Shown here piece after piece: positions 1 to 44,540 of a DNA stretch of 64,000 bases. The stretch comes from Escherichia coli. GTDB lineage: Bacteria; Pseudomonadota; Gammaproteobacteria; Enterobacterales; Enterobacteriaceae. The first letter of the stretch is position 1. Each line of letters starts with the position of its first letter. The stretch lies in assembly GCF_046105845.1 (NCBI RefSeq), contig NZ_CP151004.1; one strand, given 5' to 3'. The notes beneath the pieces are model-generated. The model was given only the letters and a program-made list of their open reading frames with translations. It had not been told where the DNA came from and did not search any database. The position numbers and the translations under genes were made by a program.

Positions 1-504
1 TTAGCCGGAGAAAAAGCATTACAAGAGCATTGTGCGAAGCACCTTATTTTCCGTACCAGCTGGGTCTATGCAGGTAAAGGAAATAACTTCGCCAAAACAA
101 TGTTGCGTCTGGCAAAAGAGCGTGAAGAATTAGCTGTTATTAACGATCAGTTTGGCGCACCAACTGGCGCAGAGTTGCTGGCTGATTGTACGGCACATGC
201 TATTCGTGTTGCACTGAAAAAACCAGAAGTCGCAGGCTTGTACCATCTGGTAGCCAGTGGTACCACAACCTGGCACGATTATGCTGCGCTGGTTTTTGAA
301 GAGGCGCGCAAAGCAGGCATTCCCCTTGCACTCAACAAGCTCAACGCAGTACCAACATCAGCCTATCCTACACCAGCTCGTCGTCCACATAACTCTCGCC
401 TTAATACAGAAAAATTTCAGCAGAACTTTGCGCTTGTCTTGCCTGACTGGCAGGTTGGCGTGAAACGAATGCTCAACGAATTATTTACGATTACAGCAAT
501 TTAA
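1..504 (+). CDS. rfbD: dTDP-4-dehydrorhamnose reductase, 3' portion (5' end lies upstream of the window)
   Basis: ORF track 100..504 is the C-terminus; frame 1 stays open back to position 1 (LAGEKALQEHCAKHLIFRTSWVYAGKGNNFAKT...), matching RmlD/RfbD as I recall it. Confidence 0.9.
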   Translation, partial: LAGEKALQEHCAKHLIFRTSWVYAGKGNNFAKTMLRLAKEREELAVINDQFGAPTGAELLADCTAHAIRVALKKPEVAGLYHLVASGTTTWHDYAALVFEEARKAGIPLALNKLNAVPTSAYPTPARRPHNSRLNTEKFQQNFALVLPDWQVGVKRMLNELFTITAI

Positions 505-561
505 TAGTTTTTGCATCTTGTTCGTGATGATGGAGCAAGATGAATTAAAAGGAATGATGAA

Positions 562-1437
562 ATGAAAACGCGTAAAGGTATTATTTTAGCGGGTGGTTCT
601 GGTACACGTCTTTATCCTGTGACTATGGCTGTCAGTAAACAGCTATTACCTATTTATGATAAGCCGATGATCTATTACCCGCTCTCTACACTGATGTTGG
701 CGGGTATTCGCGATATTCTAATTATAAGTACGCCACAGGATACTCCTCGTTTTCAACAACTTCTGGGTGACGGGAGCCAGTGGGGCCTGAATCTTCAGTA
801 CCAAGTGCAACCGAGTCCGGATGGACTTGCACAGGCATTTATCATTGGTGAAGAGTTTATTGGTGGTGATGATTGTGCTTTGGTACTTGGTGATAACATC
901 TTTTACGGTCACGACCTGCCGAAGTTAATGGACGCAGCTGTTAACAAAGGAAGTGGCGCAACGGTATTTGCTTATCATGTAAATGATCCTGAACGCTATG
1001 GTGTCGTTGAGTTTGATAAAAAAGGTACGGCAATTAGCCTGGAAGAAAAACCGCTACAGCCCAAAAGTAATTATGCGGTAACCGGGCTTTATTTCTATGA
1101 TAACGACGTTGTCGAAATGGCGAAAAACCTTAAGCCTTCTGCCCGTGGTGAACTGGAAATTACCGATATTAACCGTATCTATATGGAACAGGGGCGTTTA
1201 TCTGTTGCCATGATGGGCCGTGGTTATGCATGGCTGGACACGGGGACACATCAAAGCCTAATTGAGGCAAGCAACTTCATTGCTACAATTGAAGAGCGTC
1301 AGGGCTTGAAAGTTTCCTGTCCGGAAGAAATTTCTTACCGTAAAGGATTTATTGATGCTGAGCAGGTTAAAGTATTAGCTGAACCGCTGAAAAAAAATGC
1401 TTATGGTCAATATCTGCTGAAAATGATTAAAGGTTAG
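562..1437 (+). CDS. rfbA: glucose-1-phosphate thymidylyltransferase
   Basis: 291 aa; N-terminal [14 protein letters not shown] nucleotidyltransferase motif; position after rfbD. Confidence 0.95.
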
Positions 1438-1444
1438 TAATAAA

Positions 1445-1996
1445 ATGAACGTAATTAAAACAGATATTCCAGACGTATTAATTTTCGAACCGAAAGTTTT
1501 TAGGGATGAGCGCGGTTTCTTTTTCGAGAGTTTTAACCAAAAGGTTTTTGAGGATGCGGTAGGTCGCAAAATTGAGTTTGTCCAAGATAATCATTCGAAG
1601 TCATGTAAAGGGGTTTTACGTGGACTGCATTATCAGTTAGAACCTTATGCACAAGGAAAATTGGTGCGCTGTGTTGTTGGTGAGGTTTTTGATGTTGCGG
1701 TGGATATTCGTAAGTCTTCGCCTACGTTTGGTAAATGGGTTGGGGTGACTTTATCTGCGGAGAATAAGCGTCAGTTGTGGATCCCTGAAGGATTTGCACA
1801 TGGATTTATAACATTGTCAGAGTTTGCAGAGTTTCTTTATAAAACAACTAGTTTTTATTCCCCAAAACATGAAGTTTGTATTCGGTTTGATGATGAAAAA
1901 ATAGGGATAGAGTGGCAGTGTGCAGAGTATATGAAACTCTCAGAAAAAGATTCAAAAGGGATATCTCTCGATGAATACGTGCGCACGGTGGTATGA
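1445..1996 (+). CDS. rfbC: dTDP-4-dehydrorhamnose 3,5-epimerase
   Basis: 183 aa cupin-type RmlC-like sequence directly after rfbA. Confidence 0.92.
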   Translation: MNVIKTDIPDVLIFEPKVFRDERGFFFESFNQKVFEDAVGRKIEFVQDNHSKSCKGVLRGLHYQLEPYAQGKLVRCVVGEVFDVAVDIRKSSPTFGKWVGVTLSAENKRQLWIPEGFAHGFITLSEFAEFLYKTTSFYSPKHEVCIRFDDEKIGIEWQCAEYMKLSEKDSKGISLDEYVRTVV

Positions 1997-2002
1997 TAGA
2001 TT

Positions 2003-2917
2003 ATGAACAAAGTTAGCATATTAATGCCTGTTTATAATGTAGAAAAATATATTAGAGCTGCGATTGGTAGTATATTAAACCAAACATATCCGAATATAGA
2101 GTTAGTAATTGTAGACGATGCGTCTACTGACAATACATTACTCATTATAGATGAAATTGCGCAAAAAAATAATAACATAATTATTGTTCGCAATGATGTA
2201 AACTCTGGAATAACCGTAGCGCTAAACAAAGGTCTTAAATATTGTAGCGGTGATTATATAGCTCGAGCTGATGGTGATGACATACAAGATCCTTTACGAA
2301 TTCAAAAGCAAATAGACTTTCTAAAGGAGAATCAAGAATATGGATTGGTTGGATGTTGGATAAAAAACATAGATGAGTCAGGAAAACAAATAGCTTCATG
2401 TAAATATCCGGTTTCAGACTTAGAAGTGAGACAATGCGTTAGCTATACATCTCCCGTACTTCATATATGGTTAGCAAAGAAAGAAGTTTACGAAAAACTG
2501 AATGGATACAGGAATACAAATCCAGCTGAAGATTATGATTTTATTTTAAGATGTTTGGATTATGGTATAAGAATAGGGAACGTTCCGTATTATGGTTCAA
2601 TGATACGTTTACGTTCAGGGAGTACATTAACTGAATCTTCTTTAAAACAACGGGTTATATCAAACTATCTGTGTAAAAAATTTAAAAAAGGCATTATTAA
2701 TACAATTGATATCGAATCTGAACTACCTAAAACAAATGAACTTAAAATTATTACTAAATTGCATTCTTGGTCATGTTTCTTTTTAAAAAAAGCAATAGAG
2801 AACAAAAGGTCGTTAAAAGGGGCAGCTTATTTATGTTTGTCGCTTATAAGTCCTTTTACAGTTCAAAATATAATAAAGAGGCAGATTTTTAAAAGAAAAT
2901 GTAACAAGGGTTATTAA
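2003..2917 (+). CDS. family 2 glycosyltransferase (O-antigen)
   Basis: 304 aa; N-terminal SILMPVYNVEKYI...VIVDDASTD and ADGDD motifs typical of GT-A fold GT2; very AT-rich. Confidence 0.75.
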   Translation: MNKVSILMPVYNVEKYIRAAIGSILNQTYPNIELVIVDDASTDNTLLIIDEIAQKNNNIIIVRNDVNSGITVALNKGLKYCSGDYIARADGDDIQDPLRIQKQIDFLKENQEYGLVGCWIKNIDESGKQIASCKYPVSDLEVRQCVSYTSPVLHIWLAKKEVYEKLNGYRNTNPAEDYDFILRCLDYGIRIGNVPYYGSMIRLRSGSTLTESSLKQRVISNYLCKKFKKGIINTIDIESELPKTNELKIITKLHSWSCFFLKKAIENKRSLKGAAYLCLSLISPFTVQNIIKRQIFKRKCNKGY

Positions 2918-2918
2918 A

Positions 2919-3962
2919 TTGATAAAAATAGCAATAATATTACCATCATTGAAAAACGTTGGACCGAATAGAGTTGCACATACTCTTATTAACAAACTAA
3001 GTGATAAAGAAGGTGTATACCTAAAGGTTTTTTATATAAAAAAAGAATTAGGATTAAATTTTACTTGTGATACAGAACTTTTGACTTTAGTTAATGTACG
3101 AAAATTATATGCCTTCGATGTCTTGCATTCACATATGCTTAGGCCAGATGTCTTGGTTGGGCTACTTCCATTTTACAAAGGCCTTAAAATAAGCACAATC
3201 CATAATATAGTGACAGAAGATATACAATATACACATGGTAGTGTGATATCTAAAATTGTCTCTGAATTATGGTTTAGGATTTGGAATAGATTTGATAAGA
3301 TAGTCGTGCTATCAAAAGTAGCAAAAAAATACTATCTGGGACATGGGCTAAAATCTAAAAAATTAGAGATCATATATAATGGAATTGATCTGGATATAGG
3401 AAGTAATATCAATTATGAAGATAAGAAAATAATAGAGGAGTTTAAAGGAGACAGTACTCTTCTGGGAACACTTTGTTTAGCAAATCACAGGAAAGGTATA
3501 GAACAGATTCTTTATGCCTTGCCATTCTTACCTAATTATAAATTTATAATTATTGGTGATGGACCTGTAAGAGAATATTTAGAAAATTTAGCTATAAGTC
3601 TGAATGTAAGAGATCGATTTTTTATTCTGGGCTATAGAGAAAACGCTAAAGATTTACTAAAATATATCGATATTTATCTAATGCCAAGTAGATCGGAAGG
3701 ATTTGGTCTCGCATTGCTTGAGGCTGTTGCAGCAAAAATAACAGTAGTTTGCTCAAATATTCCAATATTTAAAGAAATCTTTACTGAACGACAAGTGTCT
3801 TTTTTTGAATTGGATAATACAAACTCACTTATTCAAGCGATACAGAACTCAATAAGTAATGATATAAATGACGCGTATATAAGGCTAAAACAAAATTATA
3901 GCTCAGATACGATGGCTCGATTATATCATGAATTATATATGACTTGTAAGGAAGTAAAATGA
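2919..3962 (+). CDS. family 1 (GT4-type) glycosyltransferase (O-antigen)
   Basis: 347 aa; C-terminal SRSEGFGLALLEAVAAK motif of retaining GT-B enzymes; TTG start inferred from ORF track. Confidence 0.7.
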   Translation: MIKIAIILPSLKNVGPNRVAHTLINKLSDKEGVYLKVFYIKKELGLNFTCDTELLTLVNVRKLYAFDVLHSHMLRPDVLVGLLPFYKGLKISTIHNIVTEDIQYTHGSVISKIVSELWFRIWNRFDKIVVLSKVAKKYYLGHGLKSKKLEIIYNGIDLDIGSNINYEDKKIIEEFKGDSTLLGTLCLANHRKGIEQILYALPFLPNYKFIIIGDGPVREYLENLAISLNVRDRFFILGYRENAKDLLKYIDIYLMPSRSEGFGLALLEAVAAKITVVCSNIPIFKEIFTERQVSFFELDNTNSLIQAIQNSISNDINDAYIRLKQNYSSDTMARLYHELYMTCKEVK

Positions 3963-4741
3963 GGCTTTTCATATCAGTTGTATCACATGGACACGGGGAA
4001 TTAATTGAGTCATTAGGGTGTTTAGAAAAACTTTCGAAAAAATTTAGTGTTGTGCTTAAAGATAATAAAAATGAGTCCAACCTTAAAGAGTATTGCAAAC
4101 ATAATAATATAACCTACTTAAGTAGCGATATTCCTAGAGGATTTGGGGAGAATAATAATATTATATTTAACCATTGCTCATCAGAATTAGGCATGCAACC
4201 AGATGATATATTTGTAGTAATGAATCCAGATCTGATTATTGAAGAAAATGAATTGATAAAACTTAAAAATAGGATGATGTGTGAAAATATAGACTTTGCA
4301 ACTATAAATCTTTATAAAGATAGGGACTATCAAATATATGATCCATCAATCAGGAATTATCCGGGCATTCTTGACTTTGTAAATAGTTATCTTGGTTTCT
4401 CAAATAAAACAATAATAAATAAATCGGTAATTAAATCAAATACCCCGGTGCCATGGGCTGCAGGTTCATTCTTGGCATTAAAGTCTTATCTCTATAAAGA
4501 AGTTGATGGTTTTAATATCAGATATTTCATGTATTGCGAAGATATAGATATATGTATGAGGGTAGGTTCTTATGGTTATAAATTAATTTATATACCAACA
4601 ATAAAAGCCATACATCTAGCACGGCACAATAATCGACGTTTTTTATCAAAACATTTTTATTGGCATTTACGTAGTATGCTTATATATCTATCGGAAAAAA
4701 GAAAGTATGTCGCTAAAAAAAATAAGTGCTACACTAATTAA
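3959..4741 (+). CDS. WbbL-like rhamnosyltransferase (GT2 family)
   Basis: 260 aa; ISVVSHGHGELI N-terminus and YFMYCEDIDICMR segment resemble E. coli WbbL as I recall it; overlaps previous gene by 4 nt. Confidence 0.65.
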   Translation: MRLFISVVSHGHGELIESLGCLEKLSKKFSVVLKDNKNESNLKEYCKHNNITYLSSDIPRGFGENNNIIFNHCSSELGMQPDDIFVVMNPDLIIEENELIKLKNRMMCENIDFATINLYKDRDYQIYDPSIRNYPGILDFVNSYLGFSNKTIINKSVIKSNTPVPWAAGSFLALKSYLYKEVDGFNIRYFMYCEDIDICMRVGSYGYKLIYIPTIKAIHLARHNNRRFLSKHFYWHLRSMLIYLSEKRKYVAKKNKCYTN

Positions 4742-5936
4742 AGTGATCGGTGGAAATGCATTAGCTCAGATTATTGTCATATTAGGCACTCCTTTACTTA
4801 CGAGAATGTACCAACCGAGTGATTTTGGTATATATTCGACCATTATGGCAGTAGTTTTAATAGTGGGAATTATTGCATGTGGTAGATATGACCAGATAAT
4901 GTATAACTTCAATGACAAATATTCTTGGTATAAATGTTTTTGCAATGGGGTTGTTATAGCAACATATATATCTCTGTTCTGCTTAATTGTAACCAGTATA
5001 CTGTTTTTTTTATTTGAATTTGATGTGACTTACTTTATAATTGCACCTTCAGTGTTGACATTTGCGATTTTACAGTTATATACATCTTATTTTAGCTTAT
5101 ATGCCTATTACAGAATAATAATAATATTAAATATCATTCGTTCTTCAAGTTTAATTGTATTACAATTGATGTTGTTTAAAGTTATTGCAAATGGACTTGT
5201 CGTGAGCTTTCTAATATCGCAAATAATATGCGTTTTGTTTTGCTTAAGCTTCGCGGGGAAACTGAACAAAAATTTTAATTTTGAATTTAAAGTGGTTTTT
5301 ATTAAAGCTAGAGAAGCTGGATTGAGTTCTGTACAATCTCTTGCTAATTCCTTTTCATCACAATTACCTGTTCTTTTTATTCCTAGCCAATATGGGTATT
5401 ATACCGTTGGTCTATATGGATTAGCTGTGAGGTTGACTCAGATACCAATTATTTTTTTTACAAATGCAGTTAGGCCATATATATTAGGAGAATTAAATAA
5501 AAAGAAAAATGATTATCGTCTTTTATCAAAAATCCTATGGAGAAGTTCGGCTTTATTATTGATTTTAAGTATTCTTGGGATAGTTCTCATTAATTTATTT
5601 GCGGAAGATTTTTTTAAGTTTTATGCTGGTGATGAATGGAAAGACGCAGGTAAAATAGCCTCTGTTTTGTCATGGTGGCTATTAATTGCATTCGCTAATG
5701 TTACGTCGACTTCATATCTAACTGTTGTGGGGCGATTTAAATCGTTATTTATCTATGATATGCTTCTATTGGTATTCAGATTAATGTCAGTATGCTATAG
5801 TTTTTATGCGGATTTATCATTCTTAAACTTTATATATATTTATTCAATACTTGGTATGTTTTTTAATCTAGGTATTATAGGTTATGCAATAAAATGTGGA
5901 ATTCAAGATGCAAAAAATATTAATTGTTACAGCTGA
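4707..5936 (+). CDS. wzx: O-antigen flippase Wzx (MOP-family polytopic membrane protein)
   Basis: 409 aa, hydrophobic throughout with many predicted TM segments; position within O-antigen cluster. Confidence 0.7.
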   Translation: MSLKKISATLIKVIGGNALAQIIVILGTPLLTRMYQPSDFGIYSTIMAVVLIVGIIACGRYDQIMYNFNDKYSWYKCFCNGVVIATYISLFCLIVTSILFFLFEFDVTYFIIAPSVLTFAILQLYTSYFSLYAYYRIIIILNIIRSSSLIVLQLMLFKVIANGLVVSFLISQIICVLFCLSFAGKLNKNFNFEFKVVFIKAREAGLSSVQSLANSFSSQLPVLFIPSQYGYYTVGLYGLAVRLTQIPIIFFTNAVRPYILGELNKKKNDYRLLSKILWRSSALLLILSILGIVLINLFAEDFFKFYAGDEWKDAGKIASVLSWWLLIAFANVTSTSYLTVVGRFKSLFIYDMLLLVFRLMSVCYSFYADLSFLNFIYIYSILGMFFNLGIIGYAIKCGIQDAKNINCYS

Positions 5937-6933
5937 GAACGGTTGGTTTGCGCAGGGTAAATTCCCTTGGGAAAGTATGGATATTGAAAGGATAAAGAGA
6001 AGGTTGGAAAGTAATAATAAAATTGTTAATGTGACTACTTTTCAATTTCTCAAAGATAATATTGCCTCGCTGAAAGATTACATAATAATATATACATCAT
6101 CTCAACGACTGGAACATAAATATTACATACAAGATATAATGTTCTTATTAAAAGATAACAATACTCTTATCCCTAACTATGAATCACTTTTGGCGCATGA
6201 AAACAAAGGATTTCAAAGTTTACTTGATAAGAAATATAATTTGGGTTTAATAAAGTCTGAATATTATTGCGATATTTGTGAAGTAAAGAATATTAAAAAT
6301 TTGAATTATCCCCTCGTTTATAAATCTGTGAATGGCGCATCATCAATGGGGGTAAAAAAAGTCCACAACACAGAAGAAATGTATAAATATGTTAAACAAC
6401 CTTGCTCAATTTCATTGGAATTATTGAAAAGAAAACTAAAAAAATATATTTTTAAAAGCAAATATAATCATCAGTGGGAGAAATATCTGTCATTTGCGCA
6501 ACAAAGATTTATTATTCAAGGTTTCATTCCTGATTTACAATATGATTTTAAGGTGTTGATTTTTGGTAAAAAATATTATCTCTTAAAGAGGTTCGTCGCT
6601 GAGAATGATTTTAAAGCTAGTGGCAGTGGGTTGCATTCGAGAAATATTGGTAGTGATTTGAAAATCGTGTTAGATTTCGCAAGAGGTATTAAAAATAAAT
6701 TTAGATCGCACATATATTCTTTAGATATTTGTGTGAAAAATAAAGAACCACACCTTATTGAGTTTCAAATGACGCACGTTGGTCCTGTTACGTTGAGTGA
6801 ATCTGATCACTATTTTATTTACAACGCAACAACAAATAACTGGGAAAAGGTGTTTTCTTTAAGTTCTCTTGAAGATGAATTTTCTAATGCAGTAGAAGAG
6901 TATATAAATGAAAGTGATTCATATAGTGCATAA
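5896..6933 (+). CDS. hypothetical protein, possible ATP-grasp-like enzyme (O-antigen modification?)
   Basis: 345 aa soluble ORF inside the O-antigen cluster; weak motif-level resemblance to ATP-grasp (KSVNGASSMGVKKV, FIIQGFIP, LIEFQMTHVGP); alternative start at 5908. Confidence 0.45.
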   Translation: MEFKMQKILIVTAENGWFAQGKFPWESMDIERIKRRLESNNKIVNVTTFQFLKDNIASLKDYIIIYTSSQRLEHKYYIQDIMFLLKDNNTLIPNYESLLAHENKGFQSLLDKKYNLGLIKSEYYCDICEVKNIKNLNYPLVYKSVNGASSMGVKKVHNTEEMYKYVKQPCSISLELLKRKLKKYIFKSKYNHQWEKYLSFAQQRFIIQGFIPDLQYDFKVLIFGKKYYLLKRFVAENDFKASGSGLHSRNIGSDLKIVLDFARGIKNKFRSHIYSLDICVKNKEPHLIEFQMTHVGPVTLSESDHYFIYNATTNNWEKVFSLSSLEDEFSNAVEEYINESDSYSA

Positions 6934-7966
6934 TTATTATGGATTTAGCGGTGCATCTCTTCAGGCAAAAAATTTAGCAAGGGCTTTGAATAATTATAGT
7001 CCGCATATTGAACAAATATTTGTGACTAGATGTCAGTGTTGTATTTCAAAATTAAATGACCATGATCAATTTAAGGTGATAGAGATACCGATATCATATA
7101 AACGACTTTGGCATTTTTTTCTCCTGTGTAAATCAATTAAGCCGGATGTTGTACATTTTCATGGGGCTGATTTCGGTCTGCTAAGTATTTGTGCTATTCT
7201 AAAAATACCAGTTTATTGGAAATCAACTCTATTAGATAGTGATGATTTTTATACATTATTGCATCGTGGTTCTTTGAGGAAATTTAAGTTTTGGTTGTTG
7301 AAGTTCATCTCCATAAATAACACGTTAACTAAGCAAATATATAAAGTTAACCGCCAATATATTCCTACAACTAAATTAGTTACGATTCCAAATGGTGTAA
7401 GCATTTCTTGTTGTACACACAGGAATGAGCTGAAAAAAGAAAAAAATGTTTTAATAATATCTGCAATCATACCAAGAAAAAAGATTATCGAAGGGATAAG
7501 ATTTTATAAAGATAACTTTGAAAACAAAGGATATAAACTTTTGATAATTGGCCCTGATAATGAAGAACTTGATGGTTTCGAAGCAAACTACGTAACGAAA
7601 TGTAAGAGTTTAAGTAATAATAATATCCATTTTTTAGGTAAATTGAAACATCAAAGCGTAAATGAAATAATGTGTCGCTCTCAATTTTTAATCCATTTAT
7701 CTGAGCGAGAAGGCATGCCAAACGTTGTATTGGAGGCGCTGGCCAGTGGTGTCTATCCGATTATAGGAGAAATGGGTGGACTTGCTTATGAGATTATTGA
7801 AAATGAATCGTATGGTTTTATTTTTAATAACAAAAACAAGTTTGATTTAAATAAATACACTGGTGTTAATATAATGGGGATGGATATAATTGATAAAAAA
7901 TATTCATTCGATGTGATTTCAAAAAAAACAGTTAATATATATACGAAACTTATTGGTGGAAAATGA
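6908..7966 (+). CDS. family 1 (GT4-type) glycosyltransferase (O-antigen)
   Basis: 352 aa; SEREGMPNVVLEALASG motif; AT-rich. Confidence 0.7.
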   Translation: MKVIHIVHNYYGFSGASLQAKNLARALNNYSPHIEQIFVTRCQCCISKLNDHDQFKVIEIPISYKRLWHFFLLCKSIKPDVVHFHGADFGLLSICAILKIPVYWKSTLLDSDDFYTLLHRGSLRKFKFWLLKFISINNTLTKQIYKVNRQYIPTTKLVTIPNGVSISCCTHRNELKKEKNVLIISAIIPRKKIIEGIRFYKDNFENKGYKLLIIGPDNEELDGFEANYVTKCKSLSNNNIHFLGKLKHQSVNEIMCRSQFLIHLSEREGMPNVVLEALASGVYPIIGEMGGLAYEIIENESYGFIFNNKNKFDLNKYTGVNIMGMDIIDKKYSFDVISKKTVNIYTKLIGGK

Positions 7967-9084
7967 AAGAAGAAAGTCATGATAATGATAAAGGAGTCTC
8001 TTTTATCGGTTTTTTATGGCTACTGGCATGTGGGTTATATATAACAAGGATAACTGCTATTAGTCCTGTTTATCTGGTTTTTATTCTCGCATTAATGTTA
8101 GCTATTCTTACAAATATTAATTGCGGGAAATATAAGGTTTCTGTTTTTACACTACTAAGTTTAATAATACTATTACTTTCAATATTTCTTTTTTTTAATT
8201 CACAAATACCTCTCGTAATTAATCTGTTGATAGTGTTACTATCACCAATGCTAGTGGATTCTTATTATAAGAGGCGATATATTACAAAACAAAATTTATT
8301 GAATGTGTTTTTATTTTATTCCTTGGTTTTCATTCTTGATGGTTTTTGGCGAATTAAACATCCCTATCTTGAACATGTAGATAAACTAGAAGAACTGGGC
8401 ATCGGCTTTCAAATATATAAAGTGAATTCATTCATGTATTCAGATTCTAATTTTGTTGGCCTGGAAGCTGTTTTTATACTATCTTGTTTTCTTTACATGT
8501 TTAAAGGTGTTCGACGGACTGGATTACTTCGGATAAAATATTTTTTCGTTTTTTGTGCTTTATTTTTGGGGGTTCTGTTAACTTTTTCTAGGGCTGCTAT
8601 CATAGCAATGATTTTACTTTTTATATTTTTCATTTTGATGAGGAGTAAATTTATTAAAACTGTTTCGTATATGTTAGCGCCAGTATTACTTGTGGTTTTT
8701 TCATGGTTTATATATAAGAGATTTACGGATGATATAAGTTTTGAGAGTAAATTTAATTTAATTAGGTATACTCTTGAATACATTAAAGATAGTGATATTG
8801 ATATGATATTGCTAGGTGTTGGTCTGGGAAATGCAGTCGAAGTAATTGGTATGGGGGCACATAATCTATTTTTGACTTTCTTAATCGAAACTGGTGTTAT
8901 TGGTTTAGTATTGTTTTTAGTTTTATTATGCATTATGTGGTTCTATCTCAAAGAAGATGCAATCATCATCATGCTTCCATTTCTAATAGCATCAATGTCG
9001 CTCGGGACAACCGCAGTACCTTACTTTTTTACCTTTACTTGGTTATGTATTCTTTACAAAAGAAAATTGTTTAATGTCGTCTGA
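7963..9084 (+). CDS. wzy: O-antigen polymerase Wzy (polytopic membrane protein)
   Basis: 373 aa, extremely hydrophobic with multiple TM segments; only remaining membrane protein in the cluster besides wzx. Confidence 0.6.
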   Translation: MKEESHDNDKGVSFIGFLWLLACGLYITRITAISPVYLVFILALMLAILTNINCGKYKVSVFTLLSLIILLLSIFLFFNSQIPLVINLLIVLLSPMLVDSYYKRRYITKQNLLNVFLFYSLVFILDGFWRIKHPYLEHVDKLEELGIGFQIYKVNSFMYSDSNFVGLEAVFILSCFLYMFKGVRRTGLLRIKYFFVFCALFLGVLLTFSRAAIIAMILLFIFFILMRSKFIKTVSYMLAPVLLVVFSWFIYKRFTDDISFESKFNLIRYTLEYIKDSDIDMILLGVGLGNAVEVIGMGAHNLFLTFLIETGVIGLVLFLVLLCIMWFYLKEDAIIIMLPFLIASMSLGTTAVPYFFTFTWLCILYKRKLFNVV

Positions 9085-9102
9085 CATTGGATAGGAAACA
9101 GT

Positions 9103-10110
9103 ATGAATATTTTAGTTACCGGTGGCTTAGGATATATAGGCTCTCATACTTTAATTCGATTGATTGAGCTTAAGCATAACATCATAGTGGTTGATAACCT
9201 TTCAAACTCTAAAGCAAGTGTGATCGAGCGAATAAAATCACTGAGTGGTGGAGACTTTATATTTTATAACTGTGATATTTGTAATGCTAAGTGTCTGCAA
9301 GAGATATTCTCTAAACATAATATCAATAAAGTCATTCATTTTGCCGGATTGAAATCAGTTTCAGAGTCAGGTAAGGCACCTCTAACATATTATCACAATA
9401 ATGTAGTTGGAACGTTAAATTTATTGAAGGTAATGTATTCAAATGGAATAAAGGATATTATATTTAGTTCTTCTGCAACTGTATACGGGGTGCCAGATAT
9501 TATACCTTTGACTGAAAAATGCGTAACTGGAGGAACTACAAATCCTTATGGAACCAGTAAACACATGGTCGAGCAAATCTTAATGGATTTAATTAAGTCT
9601 GATGGCGATTGGAATATAACAATTCTTCGATATTTTAATCCTATTGGAGCCCATCCTTCAGGAGAGATTGGGGAGGACCCGCAAGGAGTACCTAATAATT
9701 TAGTACCTTACGTAACTAAAGTCGCAATTGGAGATTTACCTTTTTTAACCATTTATGGCGATGATTACAGTACTCCTGATGGAACAGGAATCAGAGATTA
9801 TATTCATGTTTGTGACTTAGCTGAAGGGCATATAGCTGCATTGAACAATAAAGAAATAAGTGGTTTGCATATCTATAATTTAGGCACAGGTGTTGGCTCA
9901 TCTGTATTAGATATAATAAATACATTTGAGCAAGTTAATCATGTTTCGATTCCTTATCGTATATCTAAAAGGCGAGAGGGAGATGTCGCGCAATGCTGGG
10001 CTGACCCAACATTGATTCAAACTAAGTTAAATTGGCGTGCAAAATATAATCTTGAGGACATGCTTAAGCATGCTTGGCTTTGGCAACTCAAAAACAAGGG
10101 ATATGTTTAA
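9103..10110 (+). CDS. UDP-hexose 4-epimerase (GalE/Gne family, NAD-dependent)
   Basis: 335 aa; VTGGLGYIGSH Rossmann motif, YGTSK catalytic motif; placed just before gnd. Confidence 0.85.
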   Translation: MNILVTGGLGYIGSHTLIRLIELKHNIIVVDNLSNSKASVIERIKSLSGGDFIFYNCDICNAKCLQEIFSKHNINKVIHFAGLKSVSESGKAPLTYYHNNVVGTLNLLKVMYSNGIKDIIFSSSATVYGVPDIIPLTEKCVTGGTTNPYGTSKHMVEQILMDLIKSDGDWNITILRYFNPIGAHPSGEIGEDPQGVPNNLVPYVTKVAIGDLPFLTIYGDDYSTPDGTGIRDYIHVCDLAEGHIAALNNKEISGLHIYNLGTGVGSSVLDIINTFEQVNHVSIPYRISKRREGDVAQCWADPTLIQTKLNWRAKYNLEDMLKHAWLWQLKNKGYV

Positions 10111-10217
10111 TTGAGATGATACCTTTATTTGTGCATTAATTTTACAGTTACAAAGATGTATGCTTACATCATTTGAAATGTCATAATCAAAGCAGTGTCC
10201 CCTGACAGGAGTAAACA

Positions 10218-11624
10218 ATGTCAAAGCAACAGATCGGCGTCGTCGGTATGGCAGTGATGGGGCGCAACCTTGCGCTCAACATCGAAAGCCGTGGTTATAC
10301 CGTCTCTATTTTCAACCGTTCCCGTGAAAAGACGGAAGAAGTGATTGCCGAAAATCCAGGCAAGAAACTGGTTCCTTACTATACGGTGAAAGAGTTTGTT
10401 GAATCTCTGGAAACGCCTCGTCGCATCCTGTTAATGGTGAAAGCAGGTGCAGGCACGGATGCTGCTATTGATTCCCTCAAGCCATACCTCGATAAAGGTG
10501 ACATCATCATTGATGGCGGTAATACCTTCTTCCAGGACACCATTCGTCGTAACCGTGAGCTTTCTGCCGAAGGCTTTAACTTCATTGGTACCGGTGTCTC
10601 CGGTGGTGAAGAAGGCGCGCTGAAAGGTCCTTCCATTATGCCTGGTGGGCAGAAAGGAGCCTATGAACTGGTTGCACCGATCCTGACCAAAATCGCCGCA
10701 GTGGCTGAAGACGGTGAGCCATGCGTTACCTATATTGGTGCCGATGGCGCAGGTCACTATGTGAAGATGGTTCACAACGGTATTGAATACGGCGATATGC
10801 AGCTGATTGCTGAAGCCTATTCTCTGCTTAAAGGTGGTCTGAACCTCACCAACGAAGAACTGGCGCAGACGTTTACCGAGTGGAATAACGGTGAACTGAG
10901 CAGCTACCTGATCGACATCACCAAAGATATCTTCACCAAAAAAGATGAAGACGGTAACTACCTGGTTGATGTGATTCTGGATGAAGCAGCAAATAAAGGT
11001 ACGGGCAAATGGACCAGCCAGAGTGCGCTGGATCTCGGCGAACCTCTGTCGCTGATTACCGAGTCTGTGTTTGCACGTTATATCTCTTCTCTGAAAGATC
11101 AGCGCGTTGCCGCGTCTAAAGTTCTCTCTGGCCCGCAAGCGCAGCCAGCTGGCGACAAGGCTGAGTTCATCGAAAAAGTTCGTCGTGCTCTGTATCTGGG
11201 CAAAATCGTTTCTTACGCCCAAGGCTTCTCTCAGCTGCGTGCTGCGTCTGAAGAGTACAACTGGGATCTGAACTACGGCGAAATCGCAAAGATTTTCCGT
11301 GCTGGCTGCATCATCCGTGCACAGTTCCTGCAGAAAATCACCGATGCGTATGCCGAAAATCCGCAGATCGCTAACCTGTTGCTGGCTCCTTACTTCAAGC
11401 AAATTGCCGATGACTACCAGCAGGCGCTGCGCGATGTCGTCGCTTACGCAGTACAGAACGGTATCCCGGTTCCGACCTTCGCTGCTGCGGTTGCCTATTA
11501 TGATAGCTACCGTGCCGCTGTTCTGCCTGCGAACCTGATCCAGGCACAGCGTGACTATTTCGGTGCGCATACTTATAAGCGCATTGATAAAGACGGTGTG
11601 TTCCATACCGAATGGCTGGATTAA
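10218..11624 (+). CDS. gnd: 6-phosphogluconate dehydrogenase, decarboxylating
   Basis: 468 aa; near-identical to E. coli Gnd as I recall it. Confidence 0.98.
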
Positions 11625-11654
11625 TCTGATTTAAATCAATTAATCAATGCAAGG

Positions 11655-11680
11655 CCCGGAGAAACCCTCCGGGCTTTTTT
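11655..11680 (+). terminator. intrinsic terminator downstream of gnd
   Basis: GC hairpin cccggag...ctccggg followed by T-run. Confidence 0.7.
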
Positions 11681-11872
11681 ATTATACAAAGCGGCAGGTT
11701 AGGGCTTTTTTTTATAATTTATAGTTAAAAACGCGATATAATACAGCGCCGCACAGCAGGATCGCTGCCTTGACAGTTCATCTACATCAGCGTTAAAAAT
11801 CCCGCAGTAGATGAAGTTGTGGTGGTGGATTAATGACCACTCTAAATGTTTAACCGGAAGAAGTCAGAGCTA

Positions 11873-13039
11873 ATGAAAATAACAATTTCAGGAACAGGTT
11901 ATGTTGGTCTTTCAAATGGTATTCTGATTGCGCAAAACCACGAAGTGGTTGCACTGGATATCGTTCAGGCCAAAGTGGACATGCTTAACAAGAAGCAGTC
12001 ACCGATTGTTGATAAGGAGATTGAAGAGTATCTGGCGACTAAAGATCTCAATTTCCGCGCTACGACAGATAAGTATGACGCGTATAAAAATGCCGATTAC
12101 GTTATTATTGCCACACCTACCGATTATGATCCGAAAACAAATTATTTTAATACCTCAAGTGTGGAAGCGGTCATTCGTGATGTGACAGAAATTAATCCCA
12201 ACGCGGTAATGATTATAAAATCAACTATCCCTGTTGGTTTTACAGAGTCCATTAAAGAACGGTTTGGTATTGAAAATGTGATCTTTTCGCCGGAGTTTTT
12301 GCGCGAAGGGAAAGCACTTTATGATAACTTGCATCCATCACGCATTGTGATTGGTGAGCAATCCGATCGCGCTGAACGTTTTGCAGCGTTATTACAGGAA
12401 GGCGCTATTAAGCAAGACATACCAACATTGTTTACTGACTCAACCGAGGCTGAGGCGATTAAACTTTTTGCCAACACTTATCTGGCTATGCGTGTAGCGT
12501 ATTTCAATGAACTTGATAGTTATGCTGAAAGCCTGGGGCTTAATTCACGCCAGATTATTGAGGGCGTATGCCTTGACCCGCGTATCGGTAATCACTACAA
12601 CAACCCGTCATTCGGTTATGGTGGTTATTGTCTGCCGAAAGATACCAAGCAGTTACTAGCAAATTACCAGTCTGTGCCGAATAACCTGATCTCGGCAATT
12701 GTTGACGCCAACCGCACGCGCAAAGATTTTATTGCCGATTCTATCCTTGCACGTAAACCGAAAGTTGTTGGCGTCTATCGTTTGATTATGAAGAGTGGTT
12801 CAGACAATTTCCGTGCTTCCTCGATTCAGGGTATTATGAAGCGAATCAAAGCGAAAGGCGTGCCTGTAATCGTTTATGAGCCAGCTATGAAAGAGGACGA
12901 TTTTTTCCGGTCACGCGTGGTACGTGATCTGGATGCATTCAAACAAGAAGCTGATGTTATTATTTCTAACCGTATGTCTGCCGATCTGGCTGATGTAGCA
13001 GATAAAGTTTATACGCGCGACTTGTTTGGCAATGATTAA
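11873..13039 (+). CDS. ugd: UDP-glucose 6-dehydrogenase
   Basis: 388 aa from ATG at 11873 ([16 protein letters not shown]); ORF-track start at 11846 is an upstream in-frame extension. Confidence 0.96.
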
Positions 13040-13104: not shown

Positions 13105-14109
13105 TCAAACTTTATAGAAGTTACGATACCATTCTACAAAGTTCTTTACCCCCTCTTTAACTGACGTTTCAGGTTTGAATCCTATTACGTCATACAGTGC
13201 TTTTGTATCAGCACTGGTTTCCAGTACATCACCGGGTTGGAGAGGCATCATATTTTTGTTGGCTTCAATACCCAGAGCCTCTTCTAAGGCATTGATATAG
13301 TCCATCAACTCCACAGGCGAACTATTACCTATGTTATAGATACGATATGGTGCTGAACTTGTTGCAGGCGAGCCTGTTTCTACAGCCCACTGTGGATCTT
13401 TTTCTGGAATAACATCCTGTAAGCGAATAATAGCTTCGGCAATATCATCAATATAAGTAAAGTCACGCTTCATTTTGCCGAAGTTGTAAACATCAATGCT
13501 TTTACCTTCCAGCATGGCTTTAGTAAATTTAAATAATGCCATATCCGGACGTCCCCATGGACCATAAACCGTAAAGAAACGCAGCCCTGTGGTCGGTAAG
13601 CCATACAAATGAGAATACGTATGGGCCATGAGTTCATTCGCTTTTTTAGTTGCTGCATAAAGCGAAACAGGATGATCTACAGAGTCATCTGTAGAGAAAG
13701 GCATCTTGCGGTTCATGCCATAAACAGAACTGGAGGAAGCGTAAAGTAGATGTTGAACATTATTATGGCGGCATCCTTCCAGTATGTTCAGGAATCCAAT
13801 CAGGTTTGCATCTGCATATGTATTGGGATTTTCAAGGGAGTAACGTACACCTGCTTGCGCAGCGAGGTTTATTACGCGATCGAACCGCTCGTCTGCAAAT
13901 AGTGCCGCCATTTTCTCACGATCGGCCAGGTCAATTTTATAAAAACTGAAATTGTCGTGCTTGAGTAAATCAAGTCGTGCTTGTTTGAGGTTGACATCGT
14001 AATAATCATTTAAGTTATCAATGCCTACAACCTGATGACCAGCTGCAAGAAGCCGTTTACTTACATAGAAACCGATAAAGCCAGCAGCTCCCGTAACCAG
14101 AAATTTCAT
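13105..14109 (-). CDS. gla: UDP-glucuronate 4-epimerase (NAD-dependent epimerase, Gla-like)
   Basis: 334 aa; [21 protein letters not shown] Rossmann N-terminus and overall resemblance to UDP-GlcA 4-epimerases. Confidence 0.75.
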
Positions 14110-14280
14110 TTATAATCCTCACTCAGGCTAGAATATAGCCAATCTTCATCTGGCATAACTGAAAGTTAAATCATACCGTTAGACAAGAAAAAAAGATAAT
14201 CGGTATCAGTTCTAAACCTGGCTGTTTTTTCTGGTAACGTGCTCATTTTGCAATCATAGCTGTTCTAAGCTGACTATTAG

Positions 14281-14388
<108 letters not shown>

Positions 14389-14397
14389 CATCCTGTT

Positions 14398-14420
14398 ATC
14401 AGGGCGATTTTCGCCCTGAT
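14398..14420 (+). terminator. hairpin after the ugd 3' fragment (likely ancestral ugd terminator)
   Basis: atcagggcgattttcgccctgat perfect stem-loop. Confidence 0.5.
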
Positions 14421-14534
14421 TCTCTTATGTTCCCTTTGTAATAATTCATTATTTTTATCATTTATCCTATAGCATTCATGGCGATTATCGCTAAACTATG
14501 GCGACTTAAAATTATTTCGTCCGTTAGGGTAATG

Positions 14535-15512
14535 ATGAGAGTAGAAAATAATAATGTTTCTGGGCAAAACCATGACCCGGAACAGATTGATTTGATTGAT
14601 TTACTGGTGCAGTTGTGGCGTGGCAAGATGACAATTATCATCTCTGTCATTGTTGCTATTGCCCTGGCTATAGGGTATCTGGCCGTTGCCAAAGAAAAGT
14701 GGACTTCCACAGCTATCGTTACTCAACCTGATGTGGGGCAAATCGCTGGTTATACCAACGCGATGAATGTGATTTACGGATCGGCTGTACCGAAAGTCTC
14801 CGACATTCAGGCTTCACTTATCGGACGTTACAGCACTGCATTCTCAGCATTAGCGGAAACGCTGGATAACCAGGAAGAAGCAGAAAAGCTGACCATTGAG
14901 CCTACCGTCAAAAATCAGTCATTACCTTTAGCAGTTTCTTATGTTGGTGAAACACCTGAAGGTGCGCAGAAGCAGCTGGCGAAGTATATCCAGCAAGTTG
15001 ACGACCAGGTAAATGAAGAACTGGAAAAAGACCTGAAAGATAACATCGCGCTGCGTATGAAAAACTTGCAGGACTCTCTGAAAACCCAGGAAGTGGTTGC
15101 GCAGGAGCAGAAAGATCTGCGTATCCGTCAGATTCAGGAAGCGTTGCAGTATGCGAATCAGGCGCAGGTGACAAAGCCACAGGTTCAGCAGACTGAAGAT
15201 GTGACGCAAGATACGTTGTTCCTTTTGGGGAGCGAAGCGCTGGAGTCGATGATTAAGCATGAGGCGACCCGTCCGTTGGTGTTCTCACCAAACTACTATC
15301 AGACACGTCAAAACCTGCTGGATATCGAAAGCTTAAAGGTTGATGATCTTGATATTCATGCTTACCGTTATGTGATGAAACCCACGTTACCTATTCGTCG
15401 CGATAGCCCGAAAAAGGCAATTACCTTGATTCTGGCGGTGCTGTTGGGTGGCATGGTTGGCGCTGGGATTGTGCTGGGGCGTAATGCTCTACGCAATTAC
15501 AACGTGAAATAA
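14535..15512 (+). CDS. wzzB: O-antigen chain-length determinant
   Basis: 325 aa from MRVENNNVSGQNH; matches E. coli WzzB as I recall it; ORF-track start is an in-frame extension. Confidence 0.95.
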   Translation: MRVENNNVSGQNHDPEQIDLIDLLVQLWRGKMTIIISVIVAIALAIGYLAVAKEKWTSTAIVTQPDVGQIAGYTNAMNVIYGSAVPKVSDIQASLIGRYSTAFSALAETLDNQEEAEKLTIEPTVKNQSLPLAVSYVGETPEGAQKQLAKYIQQVDDQVNEELEKDLKDNIALRMKNLQDSLKTQEVVAQEQKDLRIRQIQEALQYANQAQVTKPQVQQTEDVTQDTLFLLGSEALESMIKHEATRPLVFSPNYYQTRQNLLDIESLKVDDLDIHAYRYVMKPTLPIRRDSPKKAITLILAVLLGGMVGAGIVLGRNALRNYNVK

Positions 15513-33463: not shown

Positions 33464-33907
33464 TTAGCGACAGCCTTCTTCTGTATGCAGCAAGGCTAAA
33501 AGTTCTGCAACTCCATTGTTATTAACCACACTGGTTACTAACACGTTGTGCGCTCCAGCTTCCCGTAACCAACATTTCACCAAAGATAGTTGTTCCATGT
33601 TGGCTAAATCTGCTTTGGTTACTACTCCAATGACCGGGCGATTCATTGACGAGGTAAAGCCTGGCGAAAAAGGTGACCACGGTGCGTCCGCATTAAGCAC
33701 CAGCGCGATAATGTCCGCTTCGCAGGCACTGACCAACAGTGCACTGTAGAGGCTGCGGTTTTCGAGGTATTCGCCTGGTGTATCAATGGTGGTCGGGGAC
33801 CAGACGATTGCCTGCGTTTTCTGATAATGAATATTTTCGCCACGCAGACATTGCGTGAGTGACGTTTTTCCGCACTGGCTGGGGCCGATGAGCATCATAC
33901 GTTGCAT
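33464..33907 (-). CDS. pduV: propanediol-utilisation microcompartment GTPase (EutP/PduV family)
   Basis: 147 aa; P-loop GPSQCGKTS; last gene of the pdu operon. Confidence 0.9.
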
Positions 33908-33911
33908 AACG

Positions 33912-34262
33912 TCAGGTTCGCGTAATGGGGCAGGCGGTAAAGCGCATCATTTCACCCAGCGTACGGGTAACCTGGCTAAGTGCATATTCGATCGCAGAAA
34001 CATCACCAGTCAGCACTACGGCACCGGTAAAACGATCAAGAAAACCGATCTCTACAGAGCCTGATTTTGTGGCGATATCACATGCGATGATAGATGCTTC
34101 GCTGGGGGTAATTGTAAGAATACCAATAGCGGAAATGGTGTCTGGTAAACCCAATTTCTTAAACAGATCCTTCCCTGGATTGGCGATGACATGTGCCAGC
34201 GTGACCTGCTTACCAGGGACATATTCCTGAATCATCCGTTCAGTTGTGTGCTGAGTTGTCAT
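33912..34262 (-). CDS. pduU: BMC shell protein PduU
   Basis: 116 aa from [20 protein letters not shown]; start overlaps the pduT stop by 1 nt; ORF track is longer by 8 codons. Confidence 0.9.
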
Positions 34263-34816
34263 TATCCCTCCACCATCTGACGCCACATGGCTCCATGTGG
34301 ACGGGCAATCACTGACCGATAGACCAACAAACCTTTTTCCCCCGCACGCTCGCTGGCGACAGAGACCGCGTTATTAACATCTGAAATATCGCCAGCAACC
34401 ACCATGTAGCATTTACCACCAATGCCAAAAGCCATATGTACGCGAACGAGAATGACATTCGCAGCTTTGACAGCACAATCGGCAGCGTCAATGCAGGCGG
34501 CGACACCCCAGGTTTCGACTACGCCGACAGCCCGGTGCTGTTCAACATGGTTAAGTCCGCTGATTGCAGAAAGGAGGCTGGGATGAATATTCGGCAGGAC
34601 AAGACTGTCGACCAGCATTTCACCAGCAAGGGACGCTCCGCTGTTGATGGCCTGTTGCACCGCGCCCACATCGCCACCGAGCATCAGCAGAAATTTTCCG
34701 GGGCATAGCGTTTTGCTGACCAGTAACTCAACGTTGGCGCTTTTCAGCATGGCGTCGCCGGTTTCCATCCCTTTCGCGATACTGCTAAGTTCTAAAATAC
34801 CTACCGCTTTCGACAT
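34262..34816 (-). CDS. pduT: tandem-BMC-domain shell protein PduT
   Basis: 184 aa with two BMC domains. Confidence 0.92.
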
Positions 34817-34818
34817 CG

Positions 34819-36162
34819 TTAACCTCTCACAAGCGTAATCGCGTTTTCTGTCACATCGCTGACCATGCCATCAATACTGGCATGAATGGGGGCACCTAAT
34901 GTGCCGTGTGGAATTTGACCTACATATTGCCCATGAACGACGCGATCGCCTTTTTGTACACACGCAATTGCGCTGGCACCGATGTGCTGGCGTAACAATA
35001 ACGTCACTTTTTCGGGTTGAGGCACCTGTTCAGACAATGGCGCATCCTGATACCACGGGATTAGGCCCAGTCTGGTTACCAGCCGTTTTACGGGAATCAG
35101 TCGATAATTTGCCATGGGATCAGCAGGATTTAAGGCACCTTCGTAGCGGAGATTTTGTGCGCGTAATTCCTGCTTAAGCAGACGGTTTATGCGCATTGGT
35201 GAAATTCCTACCGGACAGGCGACGCTGGCGCAGACGTTGCACTCCGAACAGGTGAGCGCCGTCAGTAACAGTTGTGGCGTAGCGAGCTGTTGGTAGTTAA
35301 CCGCACGTACTAATAAATGGGGGGCCAGTTCGTGACCGACTAAATGACGTGGGCAGAGATCGGTACACAAGCGGCATTGCTCACAAACAGTTTTCGCGAC
35401 GGCAAGTACGCTGCGGTCATTCTGCATTCGACGTTGGATCAGTGAATGAGAGTTGGGTAAAACCAGCAAGCCGCCAGTGGTTTTGCTGACTGGTGTGTCG
35501 AGCGATGTGATCAAACTTCCCATCATCGGCCCGCCATTGATAAAACCAGGAGCATCCACTGTTGCGCCGCCCGCCAGCGCCAGGACTTCACGTAAAGACA
35601 TGCCGATGGGGACGGTTACCGTTATTGGTTTCGCCACTGCACCATTAACGGTGAGTGTGCGGCGCGTCACTGGATACTGTTGCTCGACGGCTCTGGCAAT
35701 ATTAAGTACGGTTTGAACATTATTGACCACCACACCGACGCTAACGGGTAATGCAGCGGGTGGAACGCGGCGACCAGTTGCCATCCAGATGGTCAGCACT
35801 TCGTCTCCTGCGGGGTAAACATCGGGAAAAATATGCAGGCGGATATCCGGTGGTAATAGGGGTGTGAGTGCGTTTATTGCCAGTTGATATTTCTCTTTCA
35901 GCGCGATGATTCCGCTACTGGCCCCGGTGGCTTTCATCGCATAGTGAACACCGCGAAGCAGGCGGCTGGCTTGCTGCGCCATTAACTGTTGATCCACTTT
36001 CAACATGGGTTCGCATTCCGCCGCATTCACCAGGAACGTGTCAACACGCGCTTGTAGCTTAATATGGGTTGGGAAACCTGCGCCGCCAGCACCCACGACA
36101 CCTGCTGCCTGTACTCGCTCGCGGATGGTCTGGTCGTCGCAGGAGGTTAACTCGACGTTCAT
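34819..36162 (-). CDS. pduS: cobalamin reductase PduS (RnfC/NuoF-like flavo-iron-sulfur protein)
   Basis: 447 aa; two CxxCxxCxxxCP ferredoxin-type motifs ([25 protein letters not shown]). Confidence 0.92.
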
Positions 36163-37271: not shown

Positions 37272-37281
37272 TTCCGTTTCT

Positions 37282-39671: not shown

Positions 39672-39682
39672 CTTTCAGCTCC

Positions 39683-39958
39683 TTAGCGCGAAAGCGTATC
39701 GACAATGCCGACCACTGCCAGGTCGATGGCTTCGTTAGGGCCGGAAAACACATGTCTGGCGCTGGAACCACTGCTGAGGAGTACCAACTCACCAACGCCT
39801 GCGCCGACGGAATCAACGGCAACTTCGTCGCCAGTTAATGGCGTGAGAGGCAGTTCGCCGTCAGCACTGACCCGGCGAACCAGCAGCAGTTTTTTCCCGA
39901 TCAGAGAAGGTGATTTTTGCGTGGATACTACCGCGCCAGTGACTCGAGCCAGATGCAT
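39683..39958 (-). CDS. pduN: BMC vertex (pentamer) protein PduN
   Basis: 91 aa EutN/CcmL-family. Confidence 0.9.
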
Positions 39959-39961
39959 AGG

Positions 39962-41082: not shown

Positions 41083-41084
41083 TG

Positions 41085-41507: not shown

Positions 41508-41530
41508 GCTGTGCTCCTTAGCAAATGGGG

Positions 41531-41806: not shown

Positions 41807-41825
41807 ACTGCTTTTCTCCTGTGGA

Positions 41826-43998: not shown

Positions 43999-44007
43999 AG
44001 TTCGTCC

Positions 44008-44526: not shown

Positions 44527-44540
44527 GAAGATTTCCTTTG

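Follow-up and report, generated by a model that had tools for sequence, protein, structure and literature searches.

An O48-related Escherichia coli O-antigen gene cluster encoding a stand-alone ATP-grasp ligase predicted to amidate galacturonic acid

In the capsule of Campylobacter jejuni, the C-terminal ATP-grasp domain of Cj1438 (Cj1438C) forms an amide on the C-6 carboxylate of glucuronic acid (GlcA), and the resulting glucuronamide is the acceptor for the next glycosyltransferase; the HS:19 capsule contains a serinol amide of GlcA (PMC11800379). In Escherichia coli O110, the O-antigen contains an amide of D-galacturonic acid (GalA) with D-allothreonine (Perepelov et al. 2013, cited by title in PMC7685785). 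No enzyme for the amino acid amidation of uronic acids in surface polysaccharides was found assigned in the accessible literature. For E. coli O48, the entry in PMC7685785 gives a repeat unit with one N-acetylglucosamine (GlcNAc) and one N-acetylgalactosamine (GalNAc), the latter supplied by Gne, whose gene is present. Here, we describe the O-antigen gene cluster in a 64,000-nucleotide stretch of E. coli DNA (RefSeq assembly GCF_046105845.1, contig NZ_CP151004.1), which is called the window below and numbered from its first nucleotide. Judged by its sequence, the cluster belongs to the O48 family but is a distinct O-genotype (Og), a sister of O48. We propose with moderate confidence that a stand-alone ATP-grasp ligase encoded in this cluster amidates GalA, and we hold the parts of this reading other than the role of the ligase on GalA with higher confidence.

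The O48 cluster of strain VE-T2 (NZ_AP027960) shares with the window the galF–gnd locus and the order rmlBDAC-GT2-GT4-GT2-like-wzx-GT4-wzy-gne, followed by gnd, ugd, gla, and wzz. It differs in lacking the ATP-grasp gene, of which it keeps a decayed 5′ stub of ~60 nucleotides (nt). Strain VE-T2 also has an additional IS200C transposase between ugd and gla. We take the O48 unit to contain rhamnose (Rha) and unmodified GalA, in keeping with the rml and gla genes that O48 strains carry. When the cluster was compared by megablast with 5,426 complete E. coli genomes, full-length near-identical clusters (98.3%) were found in two, JNEC-KY203 and 2017.17.01CC, which were both isolated from humans in Japan. 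The next best matches were four genomes whose wzx and wzy are named "O48 family" in RefSeq, with 87% DNA identity over 91% of the query. By exact-sequence look-up, about 100 public contigs of E. coli encode the proteins of the cluster, which are also present in E. fergusonii.

The divergence from O48 is graded along the cluster. The first two glycosyltransferases (GT2_a and GT4_a) are 94% and 92% identical to their O48 counterparts in amino acid (aa) sequence, and the third (GT2_b) is 87.5% identical. The products of the genes around the ATP-grasp gene are at 76–78% (Wzx, 78%; the fourth glycosyltransferase, GT4_b, 78%; Wzy, 76%), and Gne is at 87.5%. At the nucleotide level, wzx and wzy are 79.7% and 80.0% identical to those of VE-T2. 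The wzx and wzy genes of one and the same Og genotype are usually ~97% or more identical, as known from Og typing. Near-identity to the O48 reference was found for neither gene, and the gene content departs from that of O48 by one extra, intact ATP-grasp gene. The Wzx and Wzy identities together with the extra gene are the reason why we regard the cluster as distinct from O48. The Prokaryotic Genome Annotation Pipeline (PGAP) also gives the "O48 family" name to the Wzx and Wzy proteins of O48 strains and not to those of the present genotype. Such a gradient could reflect either adaptation of the products to a modified substrate or a breakpoint of recombination near GT2_b/wzx. The OgN-typing literature examined contained no Og name for this genotype. 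UniProt entries of the A0A6S6K series call the wzy product "O-antigen polymerase," which suggests that the cluster has apparently already been deposited as an O-antigen cluster.

The extra gene encodes a protein of 341 aa. Its matches in curated libraries were weak and generic (Ddl, RimK, ATP-grasp_4, and L-amino-acid ligase), and its homologs are annotated as "hypothetical" or "ATP-grasp domain-containing." An AlphaFold2 (AF2) model, calculated with 50 homologs, had a predicted local distance difference test score (pLDDT) of 93.4 and a predicted template modeling score (pTM) of 0.90. The nearest folds to this model were ArgX/LysX, RimK, GshB (glutathione synthetase), and Ddl (D-Ala-D-Ala ligase), and the modeled protein has the ATP-grasp fold. 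The likeness to these enzymes is one of fold; their sequence identity to the window protein is 10–15%, and they act on peptides, proteins, or amino acids rather than on sugars. The window protein keeps all 15 residues that are invariant in the family, including the K139 strand with the GA-S-GV loop, the DF[KR]ASGSG loop, D273, E285, and Q287. K100, K139, the GA-S-GV loop, D273, E285, and Q287 are invariant in the 50 homologs and all present in the window protein. In alignment, the region around K139 falls on the ATP-binding strand of L-amino-acid ligase, and by their sequence pattern D273, E285, and Q287 are candidate Mg2+-binding residues. The family has invariant motifs of its own, AH[ED]NKG[FY]Q and DF[RK]ASGSG, unlike the solved carboxylate–amine ligases, and a conserved ExQ, again judged by sequence pattern, would stand in place of the usual ExN Mg2+ motif. 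The gene overlaps wzx by 29 nt at its start and GT4_b by 26 nt at its end, has a guanine–cytosine (GC) content of 0.295, the same as its neighbors, and differs from the JNEC-KY203 copy by seven nucleotide changes but one amino acid change. The protein appears to be an intact ATP-grasp ligase, and the gene looks functional by its intact open reading frame (ORF), overlaps, GC content, and invariant residues.

In a pattern scan that took a single genome from each species, at least 525 species-level relatives were confirmed, in Proteobacteria, Bacteroidota, Firmicutes, Planctomycetes, candidate phyla, and one methanogen. No function for this family was found assigned in the accessible literature, which yielded just the unrelated Cj1438C and one Vibrio alginolyticus protein, an "ATP-grasp fold amidoligase" required for capsule-dependent phage infection. 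The papers on Proteus and Enterobacter cloacae that were examined discuss neither an amide ligase nor an O48-like cluster. The window protein did not match PF14305 (TupA-like) at E ≤ 0.01; 10 of the 50 family members matched it weakly (best E 1.9e-5), no better than they matched RimK or ATP-grasp_4.

A remnant of the gene is found in O48. The interval between wzx and the following GT4 gene is 209 bp in O48 and 971 bp in the window. Over the 33 nt past the O48 wzx stop, 25 (76%) are identical to the ATP-grasp reading frame, a value reached in 0 of 20,000 shuffles. The O48 frame reads MLKIAIVIFEYACFV and then a stop, compared with MQKILIVTAENGWFAQ in the window; stop codons now stand in the O48 frame, and the similarity falls to 32% beyond window position 5969. 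Collinear clusters with the order GT2-GT4-GT2-like-wzx-ATPgrasp-GT4(-wzy), accompanied by rml, ugd, and gla, were found in Enterobacter cloacae (GCA_053540345.1), Aeromonas sp. A-5, and Moritella dasanensis. The ATP-grasp gene occupies the same position in all three, its product being 52–62% identical to the window protein, and its presence is therefore the older state. Protein identities over these clusters are 51–64% in E. cloacae (glycosyltransferases, Wzx, ATP-grasp, Wzy, and Gne), 39–52% in Aeromonas, and 37–53% in Moritella; no published structure or function for any of them was found in the searchable literature. Because O48 keeps a decayed stub, the GC content of the gene is neighbor-like, both of its ends overlap adjacent genes, and other genera keep its position, we conclude from sequence comparison that the ATP-grasp-containing form is ancestral and that O48 is an internal-deletion derivative. 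On these four observations, a recent insertion of the ATP-grasp gene into an O48-like cluster was rejected.

The genes of the cluster and of its downstream flank, with the evidence for each, are the following; all genes of the low-GC block lie on the + strand.

1..504, + strand: rfbD (rmlD), 3′ part, truncated by the window start; Pfam RmlD_sub_bind (E 1e-54), 98% aa identity to the rfbD products of both JNEC-KY203 and the O48 strain
562..1437, + strand: rfbA (rmlA), glucose-1-phosphate thymidylyltransferase; Pfam NTP_transferase (E 2e-82), annotated as rfbA in relatives
1445..1996, + strand: rfbC (rmlC), dTDP-4-dehydrorhamnose 3,5-epimerase; Pfam dTDP_sugar_isom (E 1e-75)
2003..2917, + strand: GT2_a, GT2-family glycosyltransferase; Pfam Glycos_transf_2 (E 2e-36), aa identity 60% in E. 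cloacae and 50% in Aeromonas at the same position
2919..3962, + strand: GT4_a, GT4-family glycosyltransferase with a TTG start; Pfam Glycos_transf_1 (E 3e-26), identical coordinates in the JNEC-KY203 annotation
3959..4741, + strand: GT2_b, small GT2-like glycosyltransferase; weak Pfam glycosyltransferase matches, GT2 family in RefSeq
4707..5936, + strand: wzx, O-unit flippase; Pfam Polysacc_synt_3, 78% aa identity to the RefSeq "O48 family O-antigen flippase"
5908..6933, + strand: ATP-grasp ligase, 341 aa, predicted GalA C6-carboxylate:amine amide ligase; weak ATP-grasp matches, AF2 fold, family-invariant residues, O110 homolog, and ugd/gla context
6908..7966, + strand: GT4_b, GT4-family glycosyltransferase; Pfam Glycos_transf_1 (E 6e-16)
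7963..9084, + strand: wzy, O-antigen polymerase; Pfam Wzy_C (E 5e-12), 76% aa identity to the RefSeq "O48 family O-antigen polymerase"
9103..10110, + strand: gne, galE-type UDP-hexose (UDP-GlcNAc) 4-epimerase, the last low-GC gene; NCBIfam GalE (E 2e-128)
10218..11624, + strand: gnd, 6-phosphogluconate dehydrogenase, backbone flank; Pfam 6PGD (E 3e-135)
11873..13039, + strand: ugd, UDP-glucose 6-dehydrogenase, which makes UDP-GlcA; Pfam UDPG_MGDP_dh domains, start taken from RefSeq annotation of relatives
13105..14109, − strand: gla, UDP-glucuronate 4-epimerase-type short-chain dehydrogenase/reductase, which makes UDP-GalA; Pfam Epimerase (E 4e-58), 98% aa identity to the copy of the O110 strain
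14535..15512, + strand: wzzB, O-antigen chain-length determinant; Pfam Wzz (E 4e-18), annotated as wzzB in relatives

The gla gene is accessory in E. coli, being present in 292 of the 5,426 complete genomes. Between gla and wzz (14110–14534 in the window), a short pseudogene fragment ("missing N-terminus") is annotated in close relatives. The original prediction, made from the sequence alone, had listed rfbD/A/C, four glycosyltransferases, a GalE/Gne-type epimerase, and gla. All of these stand, the four glycosyltransferases being one GT2, one GT4, one weak GT2-like, and one GT4 enzyme, and the label "WbbL-like" given to one of them being supported as far as membership of the GT2 family; the ATP-grasp gene at 5908–6933 was missing from the list. 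It had also held that the serogroup could not be assigned. The O48 family is in fact identifiable from collinearity, but the cluster is not O48 itself.

We propose the following pathway for the repeat unit. WecA, encoded elsewhere, would start the unit with GlcNAc. RmlA, RmlC, and RmlD, together with RmlB encoded upstream of the window, would provide dTDP-L-Rha, Gne would provide UDP-GalNAc, and Ugd and Gla would provide UDP-GalA. The four glycosyltransferases would then complete a five-sugar unit, which Wzx would flip and Wzy polymerize, with the chain length set by Wzz. An ATP-grasp ligase requires two partners, a carboxylate and a nucleophile. GalA is the putative substrate because it bears the sole carboxylate among the predicted sugars (L-Rha, GalNAc, GlcNAc, and GalA), and library scans of the proteins found neither an aminotransferase nor a free-amino-sugar pathway among the cluster genes in the window. 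The ligase would use ATP to turn the C-6 carboxylate of GalA into an acyl phosphate, to which the amine would then be joined. A common amino acid is the most plausible amine, since genes for amine biosynthesis are absent from the cluster and the substituent in O110 is an amino acid. Because the reaction needs ATP, amidation would have to occur in the cytoplasm and precede flipping, with UDP-GalA or, as the analogy with Cj1438C suggests, a lipid-linked intermediate as its substrate. The product would have an O48-like backbone in which GalA is amidated and altered in charge, and GT4_b, Wzx, and Wzy, the proteins most diverged from O48, may be those that handle the modified unit. From sequence and context, an amide-ligase function on GalA is the most likely one. 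The expectation of about five sugars including L-Rha and GalA was reasonable, as rml, gne, ugd, gla, and the four glycosyltransferase genes fit a WecA-initiated GlcNAc unit with GalNAc, and the nearest match of wzx and wzy was to O48, not to a serogroup known to lack Rha or uronic acid. The repeat unit predicted at that time was incomplete, however, in that it missed a likely non-sugar substituent of GalA.

The O110 cluster, which was reached via a distant nucleotide match, encodes, beside wzx, a protein homologous to the window ATP-grasp protein over its full length (32% identity, E 2e-37), and ugd and gla lie downstream. Apart from glycosyltransferase genes, wzx, and wzy, its genes are just those for the ATP-grasp protein and a PGA_cap-like protein. 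O110 is the single case of a family member in a locus with an amino-acid-amidated uronic acid, and the association is correlational. The two clusters otherwise differ: the glycosyltransferases, Wzx, and Wzy are unrelated, O110 has no rml genes, and it carries the extra PGA_cap/CapA-like gene, which the window cluster lacks. On account of these differences, the amino acid in the window cluster is probably not D-allothreonine. In O110, the PGA_cap/CapA-like protein (Pfam E 1e-44; 11623–12777 of that locus) is encoded between wzx and wzy, beside the ATP-grasp homolog, and is a candidate for supplying or handling D-allothreonine.

Cj1438C resembles the role proposed here, being an ATP-grasp domain that is encoded in a locus for a surface polysaccharide and amidates the C-6 carboxylate of a hexuronic acid. 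It differs in that its TupA-like domain is fused to a GT2 domain, in the ABC-transporter-type capsule it serves, in its GlcA acceptor, and in its amino-alcohol-type amine. The window protein is stand-alone, belongs to a Wzx/Wzy O-antigen cluster, and lies below the TupA-like Pfam; an action like that of Cj1438C is proposed for it, whereas membership of the same family is unsupported.

The genomic context of the close relatives also points to a uronic acid substrate. Among relatives with at least 45% identity, all five loci have a UDP-sugar 6-dehydrogenase gene within 10 kb and a Gla ortholog (65–88% identical). In Vibrio vulnificus, a GT2_b homolog (46% aa identity) is encoded directly upstream of the ATP-grasp gene. 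Several points weigh against an amide ligase acting on GalA. The dehydrogenase lies within 10 kb in just 9 of 17 loci at 33–45% identity and 9 of 30 below 33%, counts that come with no base-rate control, and ugd is a backbone gene of E. coli, independent of serogroup. The link to O110 is correlational and rests on 32% identity. The homolog of Colwellia psychrerythraea 34H (10001–10999 of its locus) follows wzx and is accompanied by genes for NeuB, a CMP-sugar synthetase, and a formyltransferase; this nonulosonic-acid-type locus is no obvious match to the Thr-/Ala-decorated uronic acid polymers published for the strain. Finally, no O-antigen structure was found for the present genotype. The 34H strain had been considered as a second structure–gene match and was dropped, as its homolog lies in the nonulosonic-acid locus despite the Thr-/Ala-decorated polymers. 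The uronic acid link is confined to the close subfamily; the family is probably heterogeneous in its acceptors, and distant members may use other ones, as the 34H locus suggests.

Among the alternatives, the one that survives best keeps GalA as the acceptor and replaces the amino acid with another amine, for instance ethanolamine, a polyamine, or serinol (2-amino-1,3-propanediol), in the manner of the C. jejuni HS:2 and HS:19 capsules. Cj1438C uses ethanolamine phosphate or serinol phosphate, and the GalA of E. coli O143 bears a 2-amino-1,3-propanediol amide. Different amines are not told apart by the fold evidence, and Cj1438C, the sole biochemically characterized polysaccharide uronic-acid amidoligase, is tied to serinol-type amides (PMC11800379). 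The window cluster, however, contains no aminotransferase, phosphatase, or other amine-making gene; O110, the sole family member tied to a published structure, uses an amino acid; and the window protein falls below the TupA-like Pfam, the fold type ascribed to Cj1438C. We therefore consider a non-amino-acid amine unlikely.

A reaction of opposite polarity, in which the ATP-grasp enzyme activates an amino acid or small carboxylate and attaches it to an amino sugar or another component instead of GalA, finds a parallel in the N-acyl amino acids on amino sugars of E. coli O114, O63, and O121, as listed in PMC7685785. It would also accord with the many distant family members that have no uronic acid dehydrogenase gene nearby, some of which are accompanied by DegT aminotransferase or nonulosonic-acid genes. 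Against it, the predicted sugars are Rha, GlcNAc, GalNAc, and GalA, with no aminotransferase or free-amino-sugar pathway in the cluster, and the close subfamily stands beside ugd and gla in all five loci; we regard this polarity as quite improbable. Just as improbable is an ordinary cluster, effectively O48, with the ATP-grasp gene as a passenger or decaying gene of no effect on the O-antigen: O48 strains do make a functional O-antigen without the gene and have the gene order and most genes in common with the window, but Wzx and Wzy are 78% and 76% identical to those of O48 and do not receive the "O48 family" name from PGAP, the ATP-grasp ORF is intact, overlaps both neighbors, keeps all invariant residues, and shows one amino acid change in seven nucleotide changes, and the gene is kept at the corresponding point of the E. 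cloacae, Aeromonas, and Moritella clusters (52–62% identity). The amidation of GalA, most plausibly with a common amino acid, remains the preferred reading.

The locus is a Wzx/Wzy-dependent E. coli O-antigen gene cluster at the galF–gnd position. This class follows from the presence of wzx, wzy, four glycosyltransferase genes, rml genes, and gne at low GC content and from the gnd–ugd–wzz flank. The 3′ flank in the window consists of gnd, ugd, wzz, and hisIE, and in near-identical genomes wcaM, galF, and rfbB lie 5′ of rfbD. The computed GC content of 2003–10110 is 0.308. The seven genes from GT2_a through wzy have values of 0.295–0.307 each and gne has 0.353, compared with 0.47 for rfbD, 0.43 for rfbA, 0.391 for rfbC, and 0.508 for gnd. 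In the backbone past 16 kb, the median is 0.504 and the 1st percentile is 0.345 (190 windows of 500 bp), whereas 31 of 31 windows in the low-GC block are at or below 0.372. By sliding-window calculation, the drop begins at ~1750, inside rfbC, values of 0.27–0.34 extend across ~1750–9500, and recovery occurs between 10000 and 10250, where ~0.5 is reached again. The AT-rich span of ~2000–10100 that had originally been judged by eye was thus accurate, and the picture of a serotype-specific, low-GC O-antigen cluster inside ordinary E. coli backbone holds, with 0.308 against ~0.50. Past 15.6 kb, in the his region, identity is ~98% to nearly all of the 5,426 complete genomes. The earlier suggestion that these genes were horizontally exchanged gains support to the extent that E. 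cloacae, Aeromonas, and Moritella possess collinear clusters.

Isolated 500-bp windows of low GC content (0.32–0.39) were also found elsewhere in the backbone, at ~48000, 58500–59250, 60500, and 62250–63250, the rest being ~0.50. By synteny, they lie near the pduA–pduF intergenic region and in the area of tRNA-Asn, nac, cbl, and yeeO. The pdu operon for propanediol utilization and its microcompartment, placed by synteny at ~33800–50300, is complete (pduV to pduA, pduF, and pocR). Next come a cobalamin riboswitch, a hypothetical small ORF, and cobUST; in the syntenic genome, no cbi genes are annotated. The 24.9-kb stretch 27000–51900 is present at full length in just 636 of 5,424 complete E. 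coli genomes.

The locus, taken as an AT-rich O-antigen cluster, is of a well-known kind that is already in public databases, an O48 variant plus a decoration gene. The function proposed for the ATP-grasp gene and its subfamily was not found in the searchable literature. Because wzx and wzy have ~80% DNA identity to those of O48, sequence typers tuned to O48 would probably leave untyped or mis-call this genotype in E. coli and E. fergusonii. The gene is also a candidate for a common surface chemistry, the linkage of amino acids to uronic acids through amide bonds, which is seen in E. coli O110, Acinetobacter baumannii K17, and the antifreeze-like capsule of Colwellia. The O48 deletion derivative provides a genetic contrast for the effect of the decoration on antigenicity, charge, and phage or serum recognition. 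In a broader proposal, to which we give even chances, the 341-aa protein would be the founding member of a large unnamed ATP-grasp family that puts amide-linked amino acids on the uronic acids of O-antigens and capsules, a lineage apart from the TupA-like Cj1438C. The O48 pair would then be a natural presence/absence experiment, in which loss of a single decoration gene, followed by divergence of wzx, wzy, and the neighboring glycosyltransferase gene, may have given rise to a new serogroup.

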